UHGV virus genome: UHGV-1292143
DNA: 22,583 bases
Reading direction: 5' to 3' (one strand)
Origin: a virus
This document shows positions 5,164-22,583 of the stretch, one piece after another; positions within the stretch are counted from its first letter, which is position 1; each line of letters starts with the position of its first letter. Made by a program: the position numbers and the translations under genes. The notes under the pieces were generated by a model. It was given only the letters and a program-made list of their open reading frames with translations, was not told where the DNA came from and ran no database searches.

Positions 5164-5180
5164 GTTGCTCTAATAAATTT
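5164..5180 (+). promoter_or_regulatory. C1-repressor-type operator (P1 Op51-like) overlapping a promoter
   Basis: GTTGCTCTAATAAATTT, one mismatch to the P1 C1 operator consensus ATTGCTCTAATAAATTT as I recall it; TTGCTC acts as a -35 with TAAGTC 17 bp downstream (5188-5193). Confidence 0.6.
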
Positions 5181-6824: not shown

Positions 6825-6841
6825 TTTGCTCTAATAAATTT
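6825..6841 (+). promoter_or_regulatory. C1-repressor-type operator (P1 Op53-like) in front of kilA
   Basis: TTTGCTCTAATAAATTT; same extended promoter architecture as at 5164 (TTGCTC ... 17 bp ... TAAGTG). Confidence 0.6.
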
Positions 6842-7740: not shown

Positions 7741-8241
7741 ATGCTGGCTAAAGTCACTTTCCTGAGCTGTATAACGATGAGCGATTTTACTTTTTCTGGC
7801 TATGAATTGGCCTGCTTTGTAACACACTCCGGTCTATCCCGTAGCGCCGGGCATATCCTGTCGCAATGTGCAAATCTCGCGGCAACAACCAGTGAATACT
7901 TCATTCACAAGCCTCACCGCCTGATCGCGGCAGAAACTGGTTATAGCCAATCAACCGTCGTTCGTGCATTCCGTGAAGCTGTAAACAAAGGAATCCTGTC
8001 TGTAGAGATTGTTATCGGCGATCACCGTGAACGTCGCGCTAACCTGTACCGGTTTACACCATCCTTTTTGGCCTTCGCACAACAAGCCAAAAATGCGCTG
8101 ACTGAAAGCAAATTAAAGATCTCTTCAGCGGCAACCAAGGTTAAAGCTGTTATCGCTAAGACATTGGCTTTATTTAATTTTATATCCACACCCCATGTCA
8201 AAATGATACCCCCTCCCCCTGTCAGGATGACGTGGCAATAA
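7741..8241 (+). CDS. repL: RepL-like lytic replication protein, N-terminal reading frame (166 aa); appears truncated by a frameshift
   Basis: Immediately follows kilA as in P1; frame ends at 8239-8241 just after a CCCCCTCCCCCT tract. Confidence 0.55.
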   Translation: MLAKVTFLSCITMSDFTFSGYELACFVTHSGLSRSAGHILSQCANLAATTSEYFIHKPHRLIAAETGYSQSTVVRAFREAVNKGILSVEIVIGDHRERRANLYRFTPSFLAFAQQAKNALTESKLKISSAATKVKAVIAKTLALFNFISTPHVKMIPPPPVRMTWQ

Positions 8242-8585
8242 AGAATAAGAAGTCACAAGTTAAAAAAACAAAAAGATCAGTTTCCGGCGGTGCCGGAACG
8301 TCCAGACTCAAAAAATTGACTTCATGGATCGCTGAGGCAAAAGCAAAGGCTGACAATCTGCGGTTATCCCAAAAACGCGCTCAAAAACATGAGTTCAAGC
8401 AGAAAGTAGAGGCGGCTGCGCGGAAATATGCTTACCTGAAGAACAAGCGTTCGCCTGATATTGGCGGGATATCAAACTTCGATAACCTACCGCATTGCAT
8501 GACGGTAAACGAAGCTCTTAATGCGGTTTTAGCCAAAAATAAAGATAACGATCAATGGGGTATACCGGCGGGATTCAGAGGGTGA
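8232..8585 (+). CDS. continuation of repL in a different frame (117 aa), or a separate small basic protein
   Basis: Frame is open from 8178 with no ATG. Restoring 1 nt would fuse it to 7741-8241 to give 281 codons, the length I recall for P1 RepL. Confidence 0.4.
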   Translation: MAIKNKKSQVKKTKRSVSGGAGTSRLKKLTSWIAEAKAKADNLRLSQKRAQKHEFKQKVEAAARKYAYLKNKRSPDIGGISNFDNLPHCMTVNEALNAVLAKNKDNDQWGIPAGFRG

Positions 8586-8799
8586 TAGATTGCTCTAATC
8601 TGGAGTCACCTGGCGTTTTCAGTATGGATTTTCTTTGGCGCGGTCTGGCCATTAGGGATCATGTTTGCTGCAACGTTTCTTCTGATGTGGGTATTCACCC
8701 TTCCAGGTGATTTCTATAGAAAAAAAGCCAGACATTGATACAATCGCTGCGGGTGCTTGAGGCTATCTGCTTCAGGCATTACCCGAAAAGCAGATAGAA

Positions 8800-16038: not shown

Positions 16039-17004
16039 TTATTCCCCAGCAGACATTTTCCCAATGATTTTTTTTATTGCTTCGTCAATTTCAGTTTGCA
16101 CTTCAGACGGGAGTCTGGAGAACTCGTAGGCGACAACCCGTTTTTTCGGATCGGACTTCTTTCGAGCATATTGGCGACGGTCAGAGAAGTCTCGCAGCTT
16201 CTCAACCACCACAGATTTAACCGGCGCGGGCTTCAGGCTTTTGCTTTCCGCTTTGAAGATAGCCAGTATCTTCGCTTTATCCTCTTTCGCGCCCTCAGTC
16301 TCTGCAATTCGTTCGCGCACCGTATCAACCAGCTCTTCAATAGGCACGCTTTTAGCGTTGGCATCCTCGGAGATCTGGAGCAGTAACTGGTAATCTGGCA
16401 GGGCGAGATCGCTGGCAACAGGGAAGACAGCAATCATCTCATCCGGCACCGCTGCCGCCTGGAACGCGCGCGTAACTTTAGCCTTTGAAATGTTCTCAGC
16501 GCGGGCGATCTCTTCTTTGGTCATGCTCTTACCATACATAACCTCGAAGCGTTTACCCAGTTCGCGCAGGGTGTGTTCGCGGGCTGTCTGGATATCAATG
16601 GCCAGCTGGCGTGCATCCGCCAGGCTGATCTCATCTTTCGTCACCAGAATCTCAAATTTCGTTTCATTGAAGATACACGCAGCGCGGCGACGTGATCCGT
16701 CCAATACCTCAATGCGCTCCCCAACCATACGACCGATAGCCGGGAAGAACTGTTGCAATTTAATGGTGCGGGAAATATCGCTTACCGACTCAGGGGTGAG
16801 CAGAGACTGATCGCGGCCGTTAACTGCCGGGTCAACGAACGTGCGCGACTCAATCTCACCACTCAGCACAACGGTAAGCAAAAATTTAGCCTGGCGGCCA
16901 GATTTTAGGGTAAAGGTTTTGGTGCCTTCACTGCCTTCAAGCATGCGAGCAAACTCGGAGCTATTCTTGCCCAGCACTCGTCCACGGGAAACTATTTTTT
17001 TCAT
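16039..17004 (-). CDS. parB: ParB partition protein, P1/P7 type (321 aa)
   Basis: Core ...FFPAIGRMVGERIEVLDGSRRRAACIF...KAKVTRAFQAAAVPDEMIAVFP... aligns with P1 ParB by eye at roughly 50% identity; ATGA overlap with the parA stop. Confidence 0.85.
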   Translation of the reverse strand: MKKIVSRGRVLGKNSSEFARMLEGSEGTKTFTLKSGRQAKFLLTVVLSGEIESRTFVDPAVNGRDQSLLTPESVSDISRTIKLQQFFPAIGRMVGERIEVLDGSRRRAACIFNETKFEILVTKDEISLADARQLAIDIQTAREHTLRELGKRFEVMYGKSMTKEEIARAENISKAKVTRAFQAAAVPDEMIAVFPVASDLALPDYQLLLQISEDANAKSVPIEELVDTVRERIAETEGAKEDKAKILAIFKAESKSLKPAPVKSVVVEKLRDFSDRRQYARKKSDPKKRVVAYEFSRLPSEVQTEIDEAIKKIIGKMSAGE

Positions 17005-18212
17005 GCCGCCTCACCCCTAACAAACTCAATTCGATCAAACACAGCCTTAGTGAAACGCTCGGCCTCGGTTCGTGCCTTCTTCAGCGCCTCTGCACTGCCT
17101 GGATACGATTGCGGGTTGGCACTGATTACGGTGTCGAAAGACTCGCCGCATCGCTCAAATCCATCCAGACGAGGCAGAGAAGAGTCCAGAATGTTGCTGG
17201 CGTAAACCTCACGCGCAAGGCTGTGTGATGTCTCGTGATCGCGCTTGCCGGTCATCTTCGACATAAAACCAATGCTGGCGCTTAAACGCGGTTCTACGCC
17301 TTCCTCCTCCAGTTGCTCCAGCATTTCTGGCAGACGGGTGAGATATTTCAGTGTTGAGTGGAAGTCAACCTGGGCTGGTGGGGTAGGGGTAAGCAGCAAA
17401 TCGCTGGCCGCCAGACCGTTGAGCAGGAACGGATCCAGGTGTGGACCGGTATCAATAAAGATAAAGTCATAATCATCCGCAACACGATCAATGATATTGC
17501 GTCGAAGGATTTCGTACTGATTTTGTCCGGGAAGATGCTCTTCAACCAGCTCTTTCCATTGGCTGGCAACAAAGCCATCGTCGATAGAGGCTGGAATCAC
17601 GTCTACGCCAGGAACGATGGTCGGACGAATCACCTCTTTGCGTAGCGTCTCCGCGTCCAAGTCGTTCAGCATCGCCTGCGCGGCGGTTTCCAGGATGGAA
17701 CCAATACTGTGAGTATGGTCGAGGAACATTGTGCTGGATGCCTGAGGGTCAAGGTCAATTACCAGAATGCGCAGATCGTGACGCAGTAAATCCTGATGCA
17801 CACGCAGAGCGTGCGCCAACGTGACTGTGGAAACCGTTTTGGATACGCCACCCTTCAGGTTTACGACAAAAATAACGTAAGGCGATTTGTGAATGTCGCG
17901 ATATTTTGGGATCTTACGGTGGGCATAGATATCAATGACGTTCTGGATGGTCAGCGCGTACTGTTCAACGTTACCGACCTGTTTCTTGTTGAACTGGTAC
18001 CCATCATCTTCCATCTCTTTGATGGCCTGCTCCACAATGCGGCGGCTCAGCTTCGGCAACTTTGCCACAGCGTTACGAGTGAACGTCTGATAATACTCGG
18101 TCTGATTGAACTCTTTGCGCTGATCTTCAATATCCTGACTCATGGCCTTAAGTAATGCGCTTGCACGAAGAGCTATGGTGCCGACACCGCCGTAATCGCG
18201 TTTCATCATCAT
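17001..18212 (-). CDS. parA: ParA partition ATPase, type Ia with N-terminal DNA-binding extension (about 400 aa)
   Basis: Deviant Walker A NLKGGVSKTVST, plus ...RILVIDLDPQ..., ...GFMSK..., LPRLDGFERCGESFDTVISANP; three consecutive ATGs at 18204-18212 behind an AAGGAG Shine-Dalgarno. Confidence 0.9.
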   Translation of the reverse strand: MMMKRDYGGVGTIALRASALLKAMSQDIEDQRKEFNQTEYYQTFTRNAVAKLPKLSRRIVEQAIKEMEDDGYQFNKKQVGNVEQYALTIQNVIDIYAHRKIPKYRDIHKSPYVIFVVNLKGGVSKTVSTVTLAHALRVHQDLLRHDLRILVIDLDPQASSTMFLDHTHSIGSILETAAQAMLNDLDAETLRKEVIRPTIVPGVDVIPASIDDGFVASQWKELVEEHLPGQNQYEILRRNIIDRVADDYDFIFIDTGPHLDPFLLNGLAASDLLLTPTPPAQVDFHSTLKYLTRLPEMLEQLEEEGVEPRLSASIGFMSKMTGKRDHETSHSLAREVYASNILDSSLPRLDGFERCGESFDTVISANPQSYPGSAEALKKARTEAERFTKAVFDRIEFVRGEAA

Positions 18213-18256
18213 CTCCTTATCATTTCGTATGAGTGAATTGTACGTTTGATTCTGCT

Positions 18257-18297
18257 ACGTGCAACTTATTTTGATTCGTGCGTAAATTATTGCACGT
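18257..18297 (-). promoter_or_regulatory. candidate par operator/promoter region (inverted repeat ACGTGCAA ... TTGCACGT)
   Basis: Inverted repeat directly upstream of parA; ParA-type autorepressor operators are imperfect inverted repeats at this position. Confidence 0.4.
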
Positions 18298-18299
18298 AA

Positions 18300-18600
18300 A
18301 GAAATGGCGATGAGGCTATTAGATGTGTGCTGGAGGGATGATGCAGGACCAGAATGTGCGATAGAGGGAAGTCGCATTGAATTATGTGTTGTGGAGGGAT
18401 CGCTGGTATCAAATATGTGCGCTGAAGGGAAAGATAGAAGATTAGATGTGCGCTGGAGGGAAACTTGGATGGTTAGATGTGTGCTGGAGGGAATGTCTGG
18501 GCAAACTGCGTGGCGCAACCCTCCAGCGCACACCAAAAACAGGAAAATGGGCAGGCATTCCCGGCAGCGCACATTTTTCAAATGCAGCTGCCCTCCAGCA
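18300..18600. repeat. incA-like array of ~19-bp RepA iterons (about 9 copies, both orientations)
   Basis: Repeated GATGTGTGCTGGAGGGAAA-like units with the last copies inverted; located downstream of repA. Confidence 0.8.
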
Positions 18601-18605
18601 CACAC

Positions 18606-19466
18606 TTATTCGGGAAGTTTCAGCTTTGGATTGCGAGAATGGACGATTACAAAACTTTCCCGGCCTTTCTTCTCAATTGAACAGTCGAGATAGCCGATTG
18701 TTTTAAGCTGTTCTATCGCTTTCTTAATGATACGGTTTTGCTCGCCAACAGCTGACTGCAAAGCCAGGCGCTCACGGATTCGCGCGAACGATAGCGGCAA
18801 CGGGTTCTGCGGAAGGCTTTCGATGAAAGTGTAAATGGCTTGTGCAGCTTCTTTCTTCGGAAGGGCACGCAAGGCGTGGTGTTGCAACAGAACGCGATAA
18901 TCAAGCTGGAACAGCTCCCAGAGCTTCGAATCGGCCTCCAGCTCTATCAGATCAAGGTCAGCATCAAAACGCCCGACCTTCAGCAGACCAGTCTGATAGC
19001 CGCCTTTAGCATCTTTTCCGCGCTTAAAAGCGATACCCTTGTTACGCAAGCGTCCAAGTGATTCATGAATGGTTAAACGCAGTTTCGCATCCAGACGTTT
19101 TGAGGGGAAACCACAGGCTTTAGCGAACTCCTGAAACGATAACTGGATGGTGTTTGAAGACAAGCCGTATTTGCTGAACGCGTAGATGACACCGATCCAC
19201 GTTTTGAAATCAGTATCCATATCGAGTCGAGGACCGGTGATTTTAATATCATCGTAACCCTCGGCTTTAGCTATCTCCAGCTGGGAAAACGCTTTGGTGG
19301 CATCAATCTCTTTACTTTCTCCTTTGCTCTTTGATGGCTTCGGAACGAATACCCCCAAGCGCATCAACGCTACAGGCTGCACAGTGTTGTTTGAATTAAC
19401 TGTTAGTTCTTTTGCCTTACTTTCAATGTCTGCGTAAAGAATATCGGAGATAAATGATTGATTCAT
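18606..19466 (-). CDS. repA: RepA plasmid-prophage replication initiator (286 aa)
   Basis: Flanked by iteron arrays on both sides; protein matches my recollection of P1 RepA very closely (not verified). Confidence 0.9.
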   Translation of the reverse strand: MNQSFISDILYADIESKAKELTVNSNNTVQPVALMRLGVFVPKPSKSKGESKEIDATKAFSQLEIAKAEGYDDIKITGPRLDMDTDFKTWIGVIYAFSKYGLSSNTIQLSFQEFAKACGFPSKRLDAKLRLTIHESLGRLRNKGIAFKRGKDAKGGYQTGLLKVGRFDADLDLIELEADSKLWELFQLDYRVLLQHHALRALPKKEAAQAIYTFIESLPQNPLPLSFARIRERLALQSAVGEQNRIIKKAIEQLKTIGYLDCSIEKKGRESFVIVHSRNPKLKLPE

Positions 19467-19756
19467 ATTACTTTTTCCGAATTATGTGGATAGTTTTTAT
19501 AAGTGGTGATAACTACCCAGGCTTTCCCGTCAGCACACATCCTATATCCCGCCAGCACACATTAGCAACCCGTCAGCACACATTTTTATCCCTCCAGCAC
19601 ACATCGTTTTCCCTCCAGCACACATCGCGATACACTTCTAAGCCAGACGTGGCGCGGCCTGCAACGATCAGGGATCTATATGGATCTAATTGGGATCTGT
19701 ATGGACCTAATTATTGGATCTACCCAGTGGATAATGTGGATAATGTGGATAAGTGA
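19467..19756. other. oriR-like plasmid origin: five incC iterons, GATC-containing heptamer repeats, tandem DnaA boxes
   Basis: Iterons at 19524-19628 (CCAGCACACAT cores); five GATC motifs at 19667-19725; TGTGGATAA-type DnaA boxes at 19728-19755 and near 19474-19490. Confidence 0.8.
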
Positions 19757-19780
19757 AAAACCGGCCAACATAGCCGGTTG
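19755..19780 (-). terminator. rho-independent terminator after the 19793-20185 gene
   Basis: Minus strand AACCGGC-TATGTTG-GCCGGTT followed by TTTTT. Confidence 0.5.
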
Positions 19781-19792
19781 GAAGGAAGGGTA

Positions 19793-20185
19793 TTATTCTA
19801 CGCTTTCGATAAGAAGACCATGTTCATAACATTTAAGCTCATCGCCTTCGTACAGGAATTGGTATCCAATACCACCATTTTCATGGACATTAGGGAATAA
19901 CTCATAACTCACTGAAGAGCAAATCACACCAATGCAGCGATCAACGCCTTCTCGTTCTTCAGTGCTGAAAAAATCCTCTTCGGTAAGGACATGAGTACAT
20001 TGCTCATCAGCATAGGTCGGAAATACATGCTCGATGCAATCCGGGTGTTTTAAACCAAGCTGATCGGCAAGCTCGAAAGCATGACGGTATTGTTCAGATC
20101 CTGGCTTGCCAACAGTGATGTGCTCAATTTTGTAGATTGAAGTTGCTTTGTTGATAGTTTGCTTTACTGTTACTTTATCAGACAT
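19793..20185 (-). CDS. hypothetical protein (130 aa)
   Basis: ORF ending next to oriR; no recognisable motif. Confidence 0.6.
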   Translation of the reverse strand: MSDKVTVKQTINKATSIYKIEHITVGKPGSEQYRHAFELADQLGLKHPDCIEHVFPTYADEQCTHVLTEEDFFSTEEREGVDRCIGVICSSVSYELFPNVHENGGIGYQFLYEGDELKCYEHGLLIESVE

Positions 20186-20196
20186 AAAAATCCCTT

Positions 20197-20448
20197 TTAG
20201 TTACCTCTGATAGCGCGGTTGTAATCATTAACGTTGCGATTCTTCCTGTTAATCCCCATCAGCATCGTTTCTGTATCGAGGATATACGCTGGCAGATCAT
20301 CAAAATATTCACTGCTAAACTCTGGCATCCTGCACATAAATGCACTTTTGGGGGCAGGGTGGTTAACCTTTGTCGGCGTCGGCGTTAAATTCGCTGATCG
20401 ACTGCCGGAGCAACCGCTGAGTGTCAGCAGGAATGCGCTGGCGAACAT
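20197..20448 (-). CDS. o-spanin (Rz1-like outer-membrane lipoprotein), overlapping the i-spanin gene in another frame
   Basis: Signal peptide with lipobox LTLSG|C (MFASAFLLTLSGC), Pro-rich mature part (TPTPTKVNHPAPK); start taken at ATG 20446-20448; overlaps the 3' 86 bp of the i-spanin gene. Confidence 0.6.
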   Translation of the reverse strand: MFASAFLLTLSGCSGSRSANLTPTPTKVNHPAPKSAFMCRMPEFSSEYFDDLPAYILDTETMLMGINRKNRNVNDYNRAIRGN

Positions 20449-20785
20449 TACCCGCCGCAACCAGTTGTTTCTGAACTTCAGCTTTTCGTTCCATTTGCCT
20501 GTCAGCATATTTGGCTTGTTCTGATTCATTTTTCACTTCCTGGCTGTGAAAATGTTGCTCTGCTTTGTTCATCGTCTCAATGGTCTGGTTAAGATCCATT
20601 ATTGACTTATCACGTTCCTTAACAGCCTGATCAAGACTGCCAATTTTCTCCATGGCTTGCTTTAGCTGATGACGTTCCCATGCAAACCCAGCACCAACAA
20701 GTGCGCAAATCAGAACAAGAACACCAGTAGCAGCAAGTTTCTCCTTCAAAGACAAAGCTGTTTTTAACGTAGAAAAGAATGACAT
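20363..20785 (-). CDS. i-spanin (Rz-like): N-terminal transmembrane anchor plus periplasmic coiled coil (140 aa)
   Basis: MSFFSTLKTALSLKEKLAATGVLVLICALVGAGFAW, then coiled-coil region; ATG at 20783-20785 with a strong AGGAGG Shine-Dalgarno (the track start at 20812 is an upstream TTG). Confidence 0.7.
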   Translation of the reverse strand: MSFFSTLKTALSLKEKLAATGVLVLICALVGAGFAWERHQLKQAMEKIGSLDQAVKERDKSIMDLNQTIETMNKAEQHFHSQEVKNESEQAKYADRQMERKAEVQKQLVAAGNVRQRIPADTQRLLRQSISEFNADADKG

Positions 20786-20824
20786 GTCTTCCTCCTGAAG
20801 AAAAATTATCAATGAAGTCCTTTG

Positions 20825-21613
20825 TTACTGTGCCGCTTTGTTTAATTCATCAAGAACAGAATCAGGAACCAAAGCGGCAACTGCGCTGGCTGTGCTGACC
20901 TTATTTGCTGATGCTTCCGCAAGCGCGGTACCGATAGCATGGTTATAAGCAGTTATGGCTACGTTGGCGCTTTCATTCGCTCGTTCATACTGCTGTTGTA
21001 ACGCAGTTGTGGGCGCTGTTGTCTGGTTGAAAACAACCCCAAACTGTTCAGTTGCTACTTTCAGAGATTCAATTTGCTCTTCTGTTAGTGCTGGTGGGGG
21101 AGTGGCAGTGCCGCCGCCTGAACCAGAGCCTGACGAGCTTCCTGAGCCAGTGTTAAGGGTCTGGTTAATCTCCCCCATAGCAGCGACTAAACTTGATGTA
21201 TTAAGCGCGTTAACAGCGTCCTCAAGCGATTTAGTAATATTCACATCACCAATGGCAATAGAGATCGGCAGTTCTGAAACTTCTCGCTCATTAGCACGGC
21301 AGTAAACATCCCAACCAATATCGAGTTGAAGCAGCATTGACAGATCTGCATAACCAGCCAACAGGTCCGCGTGCTTAGTTGCCAGTTCTCCAATGTTCGT
21401 TAAGCCGGTTGTGGTTGTTCTGATCGTTGAAACATAGCTGGTAATAGTGTCGGGATAGACAATTGTATCCAGAATTAATCCGGTCAATTCTTCTGCAAGC
21501 AGTTTTGCTGTGTTAGCACTGTTTCGTGCCGATGTTATGGCACCAGGTGTTTTCATCCCACCGGCGGCGGCCAATTTTTTATATGCGGATAACTGGTAGT
21601 CTTTTTCCAGCAT
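20825..21613 (-). CDS. hypothetical protein with central Gly/Ser-rich linker (262 aa)
   Basis: ATG at 21611-21613 with AGGAGA Shine-Dalgarno, 9 nt after the PAAR-like gene stop; linker NTGSGSSSGSGSGGGTATPPP between two predicted helical domains. Confidence 0.65.
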   Translation of the reverse strand: MLEKDYQLSAYKKLAAAGGMKTPGAITSARNSANTAKLLAEELTGLILDTIVYPDTITSYVSTIRTTTTGLTNIGELATKHADLLAGYADLSMLLQLDIGWDVYCRANEREVSELPISIAIGDVNITKSLEDAVNALNTSSLVAAMGEINQTLNTGSGSSSGSGSGGGTATPPPALTEEQIESLKVATEQFGVVFNQTTAPTTALQQQYERANESANVAITAYNHAIGTALAEASANKVSTASAVAALVPDSVLDELNKAAQ

Positions 21614-21621
21614 GATATCTC

Positions 21622-21906
21622 CTAACTTACCTGAACCAGGCCGTCTCCGGACGCTACGGTAGATCCGCATGAAACAGGGTCACCAACGCATACGATCCCT
21701 TTACCATTGACGGTAAACCATGCCCTGGTTGATATAGCTTGCCCACCGTGCGTACTGTTTCCATCGGTATGCTGTGCATATTGCTTACCATCAACTAACA
21801 CTTCGACTCCGTTGACTTTAAGTAGTGGTTCACTCTCTACAGGAGGCCTGGATGGGAATCCTCCGTGCCCCGAACAAATGCTGTCTTTTGTTGCAATACT
21901 TGCCAC
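21622..21906 (-). CDS. PAAR-like spike-tip protein (94 aa)
   Basis: Three repeats of the PAAR-type motif (ATKDSICSGHGG; AQHTDGNSTHGG; VCVGDPVSCGSTVASGDG); GTG start. Confidence 0.55.
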   Translation of the reverse strand: MASIATKDSICSGHGGFPSRPPVESEPLLKVNGVEVLVDGKQYAQHTDGNSTHGGQAISTRAWFTVNGKGIVCVGDPVSCGSTVASGDGLVQVS

Positions 21907-21986
21907 GTCATCACCAATTATTTGCTCTGGTTTTCGTTATTTTAACTTAGGTTACTTGTGGTCTAAATGGCGTCAACTATTGCATA

Positions 21987-22003
21987 ATTGCTCTAATAAA
22001 TAT
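21987..22003 (+). promoter_or_regulatory. third C1-repressor-type operator/promoter; its downstream gene is interrupted
   Basis: ATTGCTCTAATAAATAT with TATGTC 17 bp after the TTGCTC; same architecture as the operators at 5164 and 6825. Confidence 0.5.
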
Positions 22004-22074
22004 TGTTTTTTATGTCTTGTTTTCGGTACCATTCAGCCATCGCCCTTCAATGGGTATTTGTTTGGAGTCGTCAG

Positions 22075-22147
22075 ATGCAGATGGAGCTAATAAGCCGCAA
22101 AGAGTTCGATAGCCGTGTAACCAGCGGTGAACTCGACAACTTGCAGG
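22075..22147 (+). pseudogene. 5' fragment (about 24 codons) of an operator-controlled gene truncated by IS911-like insertion
   Basis: ATG at 22075 with GGAG upstream; reading frame MQMELISRKEFDSRVTSGELDNLQ runs into the IS end at 22148. Confidence 0.35.
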
Positions 22148-22478
22148 TGAAGTGGTTTACTGAATTTGGCCTCCTGAACAGAGGTGATATGCTCACCTCA
22201 GAACAACACAGGTGCTCCAATGAAAAAAAGAAATTTTAGCGCAGAGTTTAAACGCGAATCCGCTCAACTGGTTGTTGACCAGAAATACACGGTGGCAGAT
22301 GCCGCCAAAGCTATGGATGTTGGCCTTTCCACAATGACAAGATGGGTCAAACAACTGCGTGATGAGCGTCAGGGCAAAACACCAAAAGCCTCTCCGATAA
22401 CACCAGAACAAATCGAAATACGTAAGCTGAGGAAAAAGCTACAACGCATTGAAATGGAGAATGAAATATTAAAAAAGG
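22148..22478 (+). mobile_element. IS911-like (IS3 family) element, left 331 bp only; truncated by IS1
   Basis: Begins TGAAGTGG...; encodes an OrfA almost identical to IS911 OrfA as I recall it; sequence switches to the IS1 terminus at 22479. Confidence 0.75.
22220..22478 (+). CDS. IS3-family (IS911-like) OrfA helix-turn-helix protein, 3'-truncated
   Basis: [86 protein letters not shown], then interrupted. Confidence 0.75.
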
Positions 22479-22583
22479 GGTGATGCTGCCAACTTACTGA
22501 TTTAGTGTATGATGGTGTTTTTGAGGTGCTCCAGTGGCTTCTGTTTCTATCAGCTGTCCCTCCTGTTCAGCTACTGACGGGGT
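22479..22583 (+). mobile_element. IS1 (canonical sequence), left end only; element continues beyond the window
   Basis: GGTGATGCTGCCAACTTACTGATTTAGTGTATGATGGTG... matches the IS1 left terminus exactly as I recall it; insA GTG start at 22534. Confidence 0.9.

Follow-up and report, generated by a model that had tools for sequence, protein, structure and literature searches.

Phage P1 operator Op68 and promoter Pdmt, very probably left behind after mobile elements removed their operon from an IncY resistance plasmid

The Op68-uhr region at the right end of the window

The sequence analysed here (the window, all 22,583 nucleotides of virus genome UHGV-1292143) ends on its right with a C1 operator, a promoter and the beginning of a gene, all with counterparts in phage P1, followed by the left ends of two insertion sequences (Table 1). 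In P1 (AF234172) the order is upfB, upfC, Odmt/Op68, Pdmt, uhr, hrdC and dmt, with the unit from Op68 to dmt at 65145-68676; because upfC is intact on the left of the operator, the synteny with P1 is fixed at Op68.

Table 1 Features of the Op68-uhr region and the other two C1 operators of the window
Feature	Coordinates	Strand	Basis
Op51 (Oc4) equivalent, upstream of c4-icd-ant	5164..5180	+	Synteny with AF234172
Op53 (OrepL) equivalent, upstream of kilA (intact) and repL (split)	6825..6841	+	Synteny with AF234172
upfC (PAAR-motif protein), divergent left neighbour, intact	21625..21906	-	98.9% amino acid identity to P1
C1 operator Op68 (Odmt), ATTGCTCTAATAAATAT	21987..22003	+	17/17 against P1 AF234172 65145-65161; annotated 'monovalent C1-controlled operator Odmt'
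Pdmt: -35 TTGTTT at 22003-22008, -10 TACCAT at 22027-22032	22003..22032	+	Transferred from P1 65161-65190
uhr 5' stub, 24 codons and 1 nt, first gene of uhr-hrdC-dmt	22075..22147	+	tblastn with P1 Uhr residues 1-25; DNA alignment
Chimeric ORF, 54 codons: 24 from uhr and 30 from the IS911 left end, stop TAG at 22237-22239	22075..22239	+	ORF reading
IS911-type (IS3 family) left end, nt 1-331 only, IRL TGAAGTGGTTTACTGAATTTGGCC	22148..22478	+	BLAST-type identities and HTH_Tnp_1
IS1, first 105 nt, left inverted repeat GGTGATGCTGCC	22479..22583	+	100% identity to IS1 of P1, SfIV and others

An earlier note on this DNA had listed three ATTGCTCTAATAAATTT-type operators. A scan of the window found all three on the + strand, at 5164, 6825 and 21987, each with one mismatch to this consensus (16/17), a number of matches that none of 100 shuffled windows reached (mean 0.16 matches). 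The three operator-linked operons all read rightward, as the note had it; the extended promoter layout that it took them to share is only partly borne out, since about 12 nt of additional 3' similarity are common to the three sites, but in P1 as annotated a downstream promoter whose -35 overlaps the operator end is present at Op51 and Op68 alone, whereas at Op53 the promoter -10 lies inside the operator.

The site at 21987, 16/17 identical to the consensus, is 17/17 identical to P1 Op68; synteny and alignment to AF234172 put it in the upfC-uhr interval, where its 3' end overlaps the Pdmt -35. Both Pdmt hexamers are those of P1 and the spacer carries one substitution, at 22017; the 161 bp that begin with the operator and end at the breakpoint differ from P1 by three substitutions in all. 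A generic sigma-70 scan gave no call at Pdmt, and the P1 promoter is likewise off consensus, so that it is assigned here by its identity to the promoter annotated in P1; our statements on Op68 are similarly based on the GenBank annotation of P1, AF234172.

Two further parts of the window with P1 counterparts are altered. At 8589-8599 lie the first 11 bp of P1 Op55/Orlf (ATTGCTCTAAT), followed by non-P1 DNA: beyond 8599, in place of P1 rlfA-rlfB-pmgF, lies a segment in which the annotated relative has a hok-type toxin gene. Op55/Orlf is a second C1 site in the window without its genes, the site itself being halved. The lytic replication initiator gene repL, which contains oriL and is a single 281-codon gene in P1, is broken at 7741-8585 into two ORFs, 7741-8241 and 8232-8585, which overlap but are read in different frames; its upstream neighbour kilA is intact with 99% amino acid identity. 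The replicon and partition segment at 16057-19466 encodes a RepA 100% identical to that of P1, with ParA at 58% and ParB at 43% identity, and the partition module thus appears to be of a different type from the replicon that it serves.

Alignment to P1 names the interrupted gene, as the note had proposed it should: it is uhr, the first gene of the Dam-type methylase operon uhr-hrdC-dmt. Control of this operon by Op68 is established in P1; a 1989 report on Op21, Op68 and Op88 is said to place the P1 dam methylase under the control of Op68. The uhr ATG is at 22075 and, in a comparison of the window's last 1.2 kb, homology to all P1-like phages ends at 22147, with the IS911-type left end starting at the next nucleotide, exactly where the note had a stub of about 24 codons meet an IS911-like end. 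The chimeric ORF that results contains no Pfam family. Uhr has no sequence match in Pfam, NCBIfam or the PDB; its sole match is PHROG 2213, labelled with the putative name 'nucleoside triphosphate pyrophosphohydrolase'. In a CRISPRi screen of P1, uhr, hrdC and dmt all scored as non-essential (PMC10695390).

From 22148 the terminal inverted repeat TGAAGTGG is followed by orfA with its HTH domain. At the nucleotide level the IS911-type fragment shares 96% identity with IS911 of phage Sf6 and 99.4% with an allele carried by many E. coli chromosomes, that of Nissle 1917 among them. Its truncated orfA' starts with an ATG at 22220 and comprises 86 native codons and a Gly, the stop codon TGA (22481-22483) coming from IS1; the complete HTH_Tnp_1 domain is retained (E=1.7e-14). 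The fragment ends directly 3' of the A-AAA-AAG slippery heptamer at 22471-22477. We found neither orfB (the DDE transposase), nor a right inverted repeat, nor a 3-bp target duplication, and IS911 nt 332-1250 are absent from the complete plasmid pTetA_020022, described below; judged by its sequence, the fragment is an immobile remnant and no longer an element. The IS1 that abuts it opens with the left inverted repeat GGTGATGCTGCCAACTTACTGAT, followed by insA, which starts with GTG at 22534 and reads rightward until the window ends inside the element. RefSeq already annotates both the IS3-family fragment and IS1; in the literature we found no paper discussing this particular IS911-IS1/uhr junction.

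Complete relatives and the history of the junction

With 99.97-100% identity, the window matches IncY resistance plasmids that derive from P1 and form a clonal family (pTetA_020022, pE2 and pCrono684-2 among them) with at least 99.9% identity between members. Identity to pTetA_020022 (CP032890) is 99.97%, apart from a 3.6-kb segment, absent from the window, that carries the group II intron gene ltrA; identity to OQ534123 and others is 100% over the part compared. The exact 684-bp junction occurs in 12 independent complete PLSDB plasmids, and 9 of the 5,426 complete E. coli genomes have it too, which rules out an assembly artefact or a truncation by the window edge. Its carriers are all IncY plasmids of 81-102 kb, plus one 372-kb record, and come from humans, poultry, swine and food, one of them from Cronobacter; the family has four to nine IS1-matching places per plasmid. 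The window itself runs out within an IS1 copy at either end (1-256 and 22479-22583), and therefore looks like a contig broken in repeats.

In pTetA_020022 the IS1 beside IS911 has its full length of 768 bp and shares 99.5% identity with that of P1; its transposase CDS starts at the equivalent of 22534. When P1 was compared with this plasmid by BLAST, 32.3 kb of its 94.8 kb (about 34%) were matched, and P1 65306-79115 (about 13.8 kb) had no match on the entire replicon; lost with it are what remained of uhr, together with hrdC, dmt, the tRNAs, tciABC, ban, dbn, genes 5, 6, 24, 7, 25 and 26, pmgL and a portion of pmgM, several tail or baseplate genes among them. P1 sequence returns at 79116, collinear with the phage and adjoining the end of an IS5-family element, and the gap is filled by a mosaic of about 18.5 kb that includes four IS1, ISKpn26, mobI (IncA/C type), cadR, a two-component system and DMSO-reductase genes. 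The absence of this P1 segment from a complete, near-identical replicon means that the truncation of uhr is real and does not stem from the window edge: the intact homologue whose presence in the complete replicon would, by the note, have refuted it is not in pTetA_020022, where the rest of uhr, hrdC and dmt are all missing. A repressor-controlled function has been lost, as had been claimed, and the operator concerned is P1 Op68; what disappeared is an operon and about 13.8 kb, not a single gene. With only 24 uhr codons left, and hrdC and dmt gone from the replicon, Op68 counts as orphaned.

The operon loss is part of a wholesale decay of the phage. pTetA_020022 is also without lpa, pacA, most of pacB, prt, pro, lyz, the tail-fibre genes and most baseplate genes; pacA and pacB are the packaging genes served by Dam methylation, and the deletion of lpa leaves the plasmid with no late-gene activator. 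The complete gene set of a functional P1-like phage (late activator, packaging, head, tail and lysis) is not present in pTetA_020022. The plasmid does encode a full-length C1, identical to P1 C1 at 281/283 residues; c1 lies outside the window, and we infer its presence there from the near-identical complete plasmids. pTetA_020022 carries mobI(A/C) and is typed as mobilizable.

Two other losses of P1 DNA were seen in these plasmids. At 42588-42591 of pTetA_020022, P1 homology that spans the position of Olpa/Op94 and Plpa stops 7 nt into lpa and joins the pacB remnant, so that Plpa may be a second C1-controlled promoter left geneless. At the left end of the window, positions 1-256 are an IS1 variant, 91% identical to the IS1 of P1, whose end abuts pmgB at about codon 172 (257-902); the complete relative has this IS1 on the downstream side of ssb, as P1 has its own, and the 21.4 kb of P1 missing beside it, from isaB to pmgB (the dar and lyd genes, cin, tail fibres, baseplate and sit), looks like an IS1-adjacent deletion.

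The two insertion-sequence junctions differ in their distribution. That between IS911 and IS1 is found in 12 of 72,556 plasmids, all within the IncY P1-derived family; as it was met in no other context among these plasmids, nothing suggests that it was imported ready-made, and the restriction to one family places the IS1 event within the plasmid lineage. The uhr::IS911 junction is probably older. A 31-mer across it (CGACAACTTGCAGGTGAAGTGGTTTACTGAA) matched one metagenome contig, OJIU01005321.1 (L011, positions 127-1639), which is 98.8% identical to window 21098-22478, an identity too low for the same clone. This contig has the same junction at uhr codon 24 and an IS911 allele 99.4% identical to that of the window, but its IS911 extends 4 nt further (...AAAAAAGGCTAC, GGCTAC) and then meets the end of an IS30, inside which the contig stops; it is the presence of IS30 in place of IS1 that would make the uhr insertion the earlier event. 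The ancestor probably carried an IS911 interrupted by IS30, like many E. coli chromosomes, and no complete IS911 at uhr codon 24 was found in PLSDB, in the complete E. coli genomes or in IMG/VR. The backbone of OJIU01005321.1 is itself cut by an IS629/IS1203-type end at the equivalent of window 21098.

Origin and present state of the operator-promoter unit

We conclude that the unit in the window is very probably P1 Op68/Pdmt left behind after mobile elements removed the operon of an IncY resistance plasmid. Ordering the events by parsimony, an IS911-type element would have entered uhr after codon 24, co-oriented with uhr; IS1 would then have entered at IS911 nt 331/332, directly 3' of the A6G frameshift site; and an IS1-mediated deletion or a recombination between insertion sequences would have exchanged the rest of IS911 and P1 65306-79115 for the mosaic of about 18.5 kb.

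That the IS911 end is cut by IS1 at 22479, as the note had claimed, agrees with an exact junction and with the 105 nt of perfect IS1 identity; its description of the locus as nested insertions is too simple. Two clean insertions, IS911 in uhr and IS1 in IS911, would account for ends that are both exact and co-oriented, and the window, which stops inside IS1 with the far side out of view, leaves room for the distal halves just past its edge. In pTetA_020022, however, IS1 is followed by GCCACAGGG, an inverted IS1-end fragment, ISKpn26 and mobI; IS911 nt 332-1250 and P1 65306-79115 are nowhere on the replicon; and no target duplication of 8-9 bp surrounds IS1 (...TTAAAAAAGG on its left, GCCACAGGG... 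on its right). The missing distal halves and the absent duplication refute two clean insertions for pTetA_020022, and we put their probability close to nil. Flanks without a direct repeat argue for a later deletion or recombination at that IS1 copy; together with the absent remainder of IS911 and the mosaic that follows, they lead us to read the structure as an IS-mediated replacement that involved at least one deletion or recombination. A different origin would start from p0111-type P1-like plasmids, since about 60 complete E. coli genomes have the arrangement Op68-uhr-hrdC'::IS911(1-335)::IS30 in the same orientation, with IS911 in the 3' end of hrdC, 755 bp further downstream than in the window; a leftward deletion beside the IS911 left end would then have removed hrdC and most of uhr. 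This is extremely unlikely. Identity between these IS911 fragments is no more than 91% (301/331), for which reason we read the hrdC insertion as an independent event, whereas the window's allele is 99.4% identical both to the chromosomal allele and to OJIU01005321.1; a truncated IS911 with neither transposase nor right end would, moreover, be an unlikely agent of deletion.

The remaining alternative concerns function: C1 might have come to gate IS911 OrfA' and/or IS1 InsA/InsAB', such that derepression, by Ant/Coi or under stress, would alter transposition or rearrangement, and a phage immunity switch would have been rewired to gate transposition on a resistance plasmid. Pdmt, orfA' and insA are indeed collinear with no predicted terminator, orfA' has its complete HTH_Tnp_1 domain, and both the four to nine IS1-matching places and the spread of plasmid sizes (77-102 kb, with the one 372-kb record) are consistent with active IS1. 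Against this, IS1 has its own promoter, which InsA represses, and transcription entering IS1 ends from outside is reported to lower, not raise, IS1 activity. The arrangement is, besides, fully explained by chance orientation of the insertions, and the sibling plasmid pTLYA-3 persists after losing the whole block: it is identical (NZ_CP137165.1, 10080-11545) over window 19467-20164, where an IS1 end abuts 20164, and is without 20165-22478, that is, the start of upfA, mlp, ppfA, upfB, upfC, the operator, the stub and the IS911 remnant. The Op68 block is therefore dispensable for the plasmid, and we regard its co-option as very unlikely.

If Op68/Pdmt is instead a leftover of the lost operon, as we prefer, its present behaviour can be predicted from P1. 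Since the operator and the hexamers match P1 Op68/Pdmt, the plasmid's C1 should bind the operator and hold Pdmt shut; a derepressed Pdmt would transcribe the 54-codon chimeric ORF, OrfA' (HTH domain only) and IS1 insA/insAB'. Read-through into the insertion sequences, which the note had thought possible, is plausible, because orfA' and insA are co-oriented with Pdmt and no terminator-like site is predicted on the + strand in 21600-22583. Nothing useful to the phage remains downstream of Pdmt. Most likely the unit has no selected function, and its best reading is as a young neutral relic: the Op68 block looks conserved only because the lineage is recent, and an operator region free of decay (3 differences in 161 bp) fits such youth, while being compatible with selection too.

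Relation to known systems

All the parts, the process and the type of plasmid are already known, and the case is one of ordinary plasmid decay with little importance beyond annotation. What it adds is the identity of an orphan site, P1 Op68, and of the cargo that it lost, the operon uhr-hrdC-dmt with the phage Dam methylase; in the IncY family, the IS junctions could in addition be used to mark the lineage. Against P1 itself (AF234172), the window matches in the operator (17/17), the hexamers, the neighbouring upfC and the first 24 uhr codons, and differs from uhr codon 25 onward, where hrdC, dmt and a further 10 kb or so are missing and IS911, IS1 and foreign DNA stand instead.

For the plasmid family, the comparison changes an earlier description. 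pCrono684-2, pTetA_020022, pE2 and pNDM-M121 were called 'intact prophage ... complete phage-building proteins' from PHASTER (PMC9603571), which is contradicted by pTetA_020022, where about 34% of P1 is left and the genes for packaging, portal, lysis and tail fibres are missing; the IncY resistance plasmids of this family, which has been widely sampled, derive from P1 but are heavily decayed and keep about a third of the phage. P1-derived mobilisable plasmids that have lost phage genes and gained oriT/mob and resistance, while keeping the P1 replicon (IncY/p0111), have been described (Pfeifer and Rocha 2024, PMC10879196), and pTetA_020022 is like them in the share of P1 kept, in mobI(A/C) and in being mobilizable; that study worked at the level of gene repertoires and describes neither the junction in the window nor the fate of single C1 operators. 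A relative of pTetA_020022, pE2, was reported to be transferred in mating experiments (PMC8889117), and we read transfer of the family's plasmids as mobilisation via the acquired mobI/oriT region, not as transduction.

The breakpoint in IS911 also has parallels. In IS911A::IS30 of E. coli chromosomes such as that of Nissle 1917 and in hrdC::IS911::IS30 of the p0111-type plasmids, a 5' fragment of IS911 is likewise cut just past the A6G site, and IS30 follows the same ...AAAAAAGGCTAC in the p0111-type plasmids, in OJIU01005321.1 and, in opposite orientation, on the Nissle 1917 chromosome (sites compared: window 22471-22478, L008 5320-5345 and L009 2318-2345). The pattern points to a hot spot for IS30 immediately 3' of the frameshift site in IS911. 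The IS1 of the window differs in lying 4 nt upstream (...AAAAAAGG), and Nissle 1917 has the rest of the IS3-family transposase beyond its IS30, whereas the window's lineage is without it.

Also close are pSvP1 and pTZ20_1P, rearranged P1-like E. coli plasmids (Venturini et al. 2019, PMC6906374), in which the same region has undergone the same kind of event. There the elements are ISEc84, IS3 and IS100, as opposed to the IS911-type, IS1 and IS5-family elements here, and the breakpoints are others; in pSvP1 the deletion runs from upfA and takes Op68 with it, whereas the window keeps both operator and promoter.
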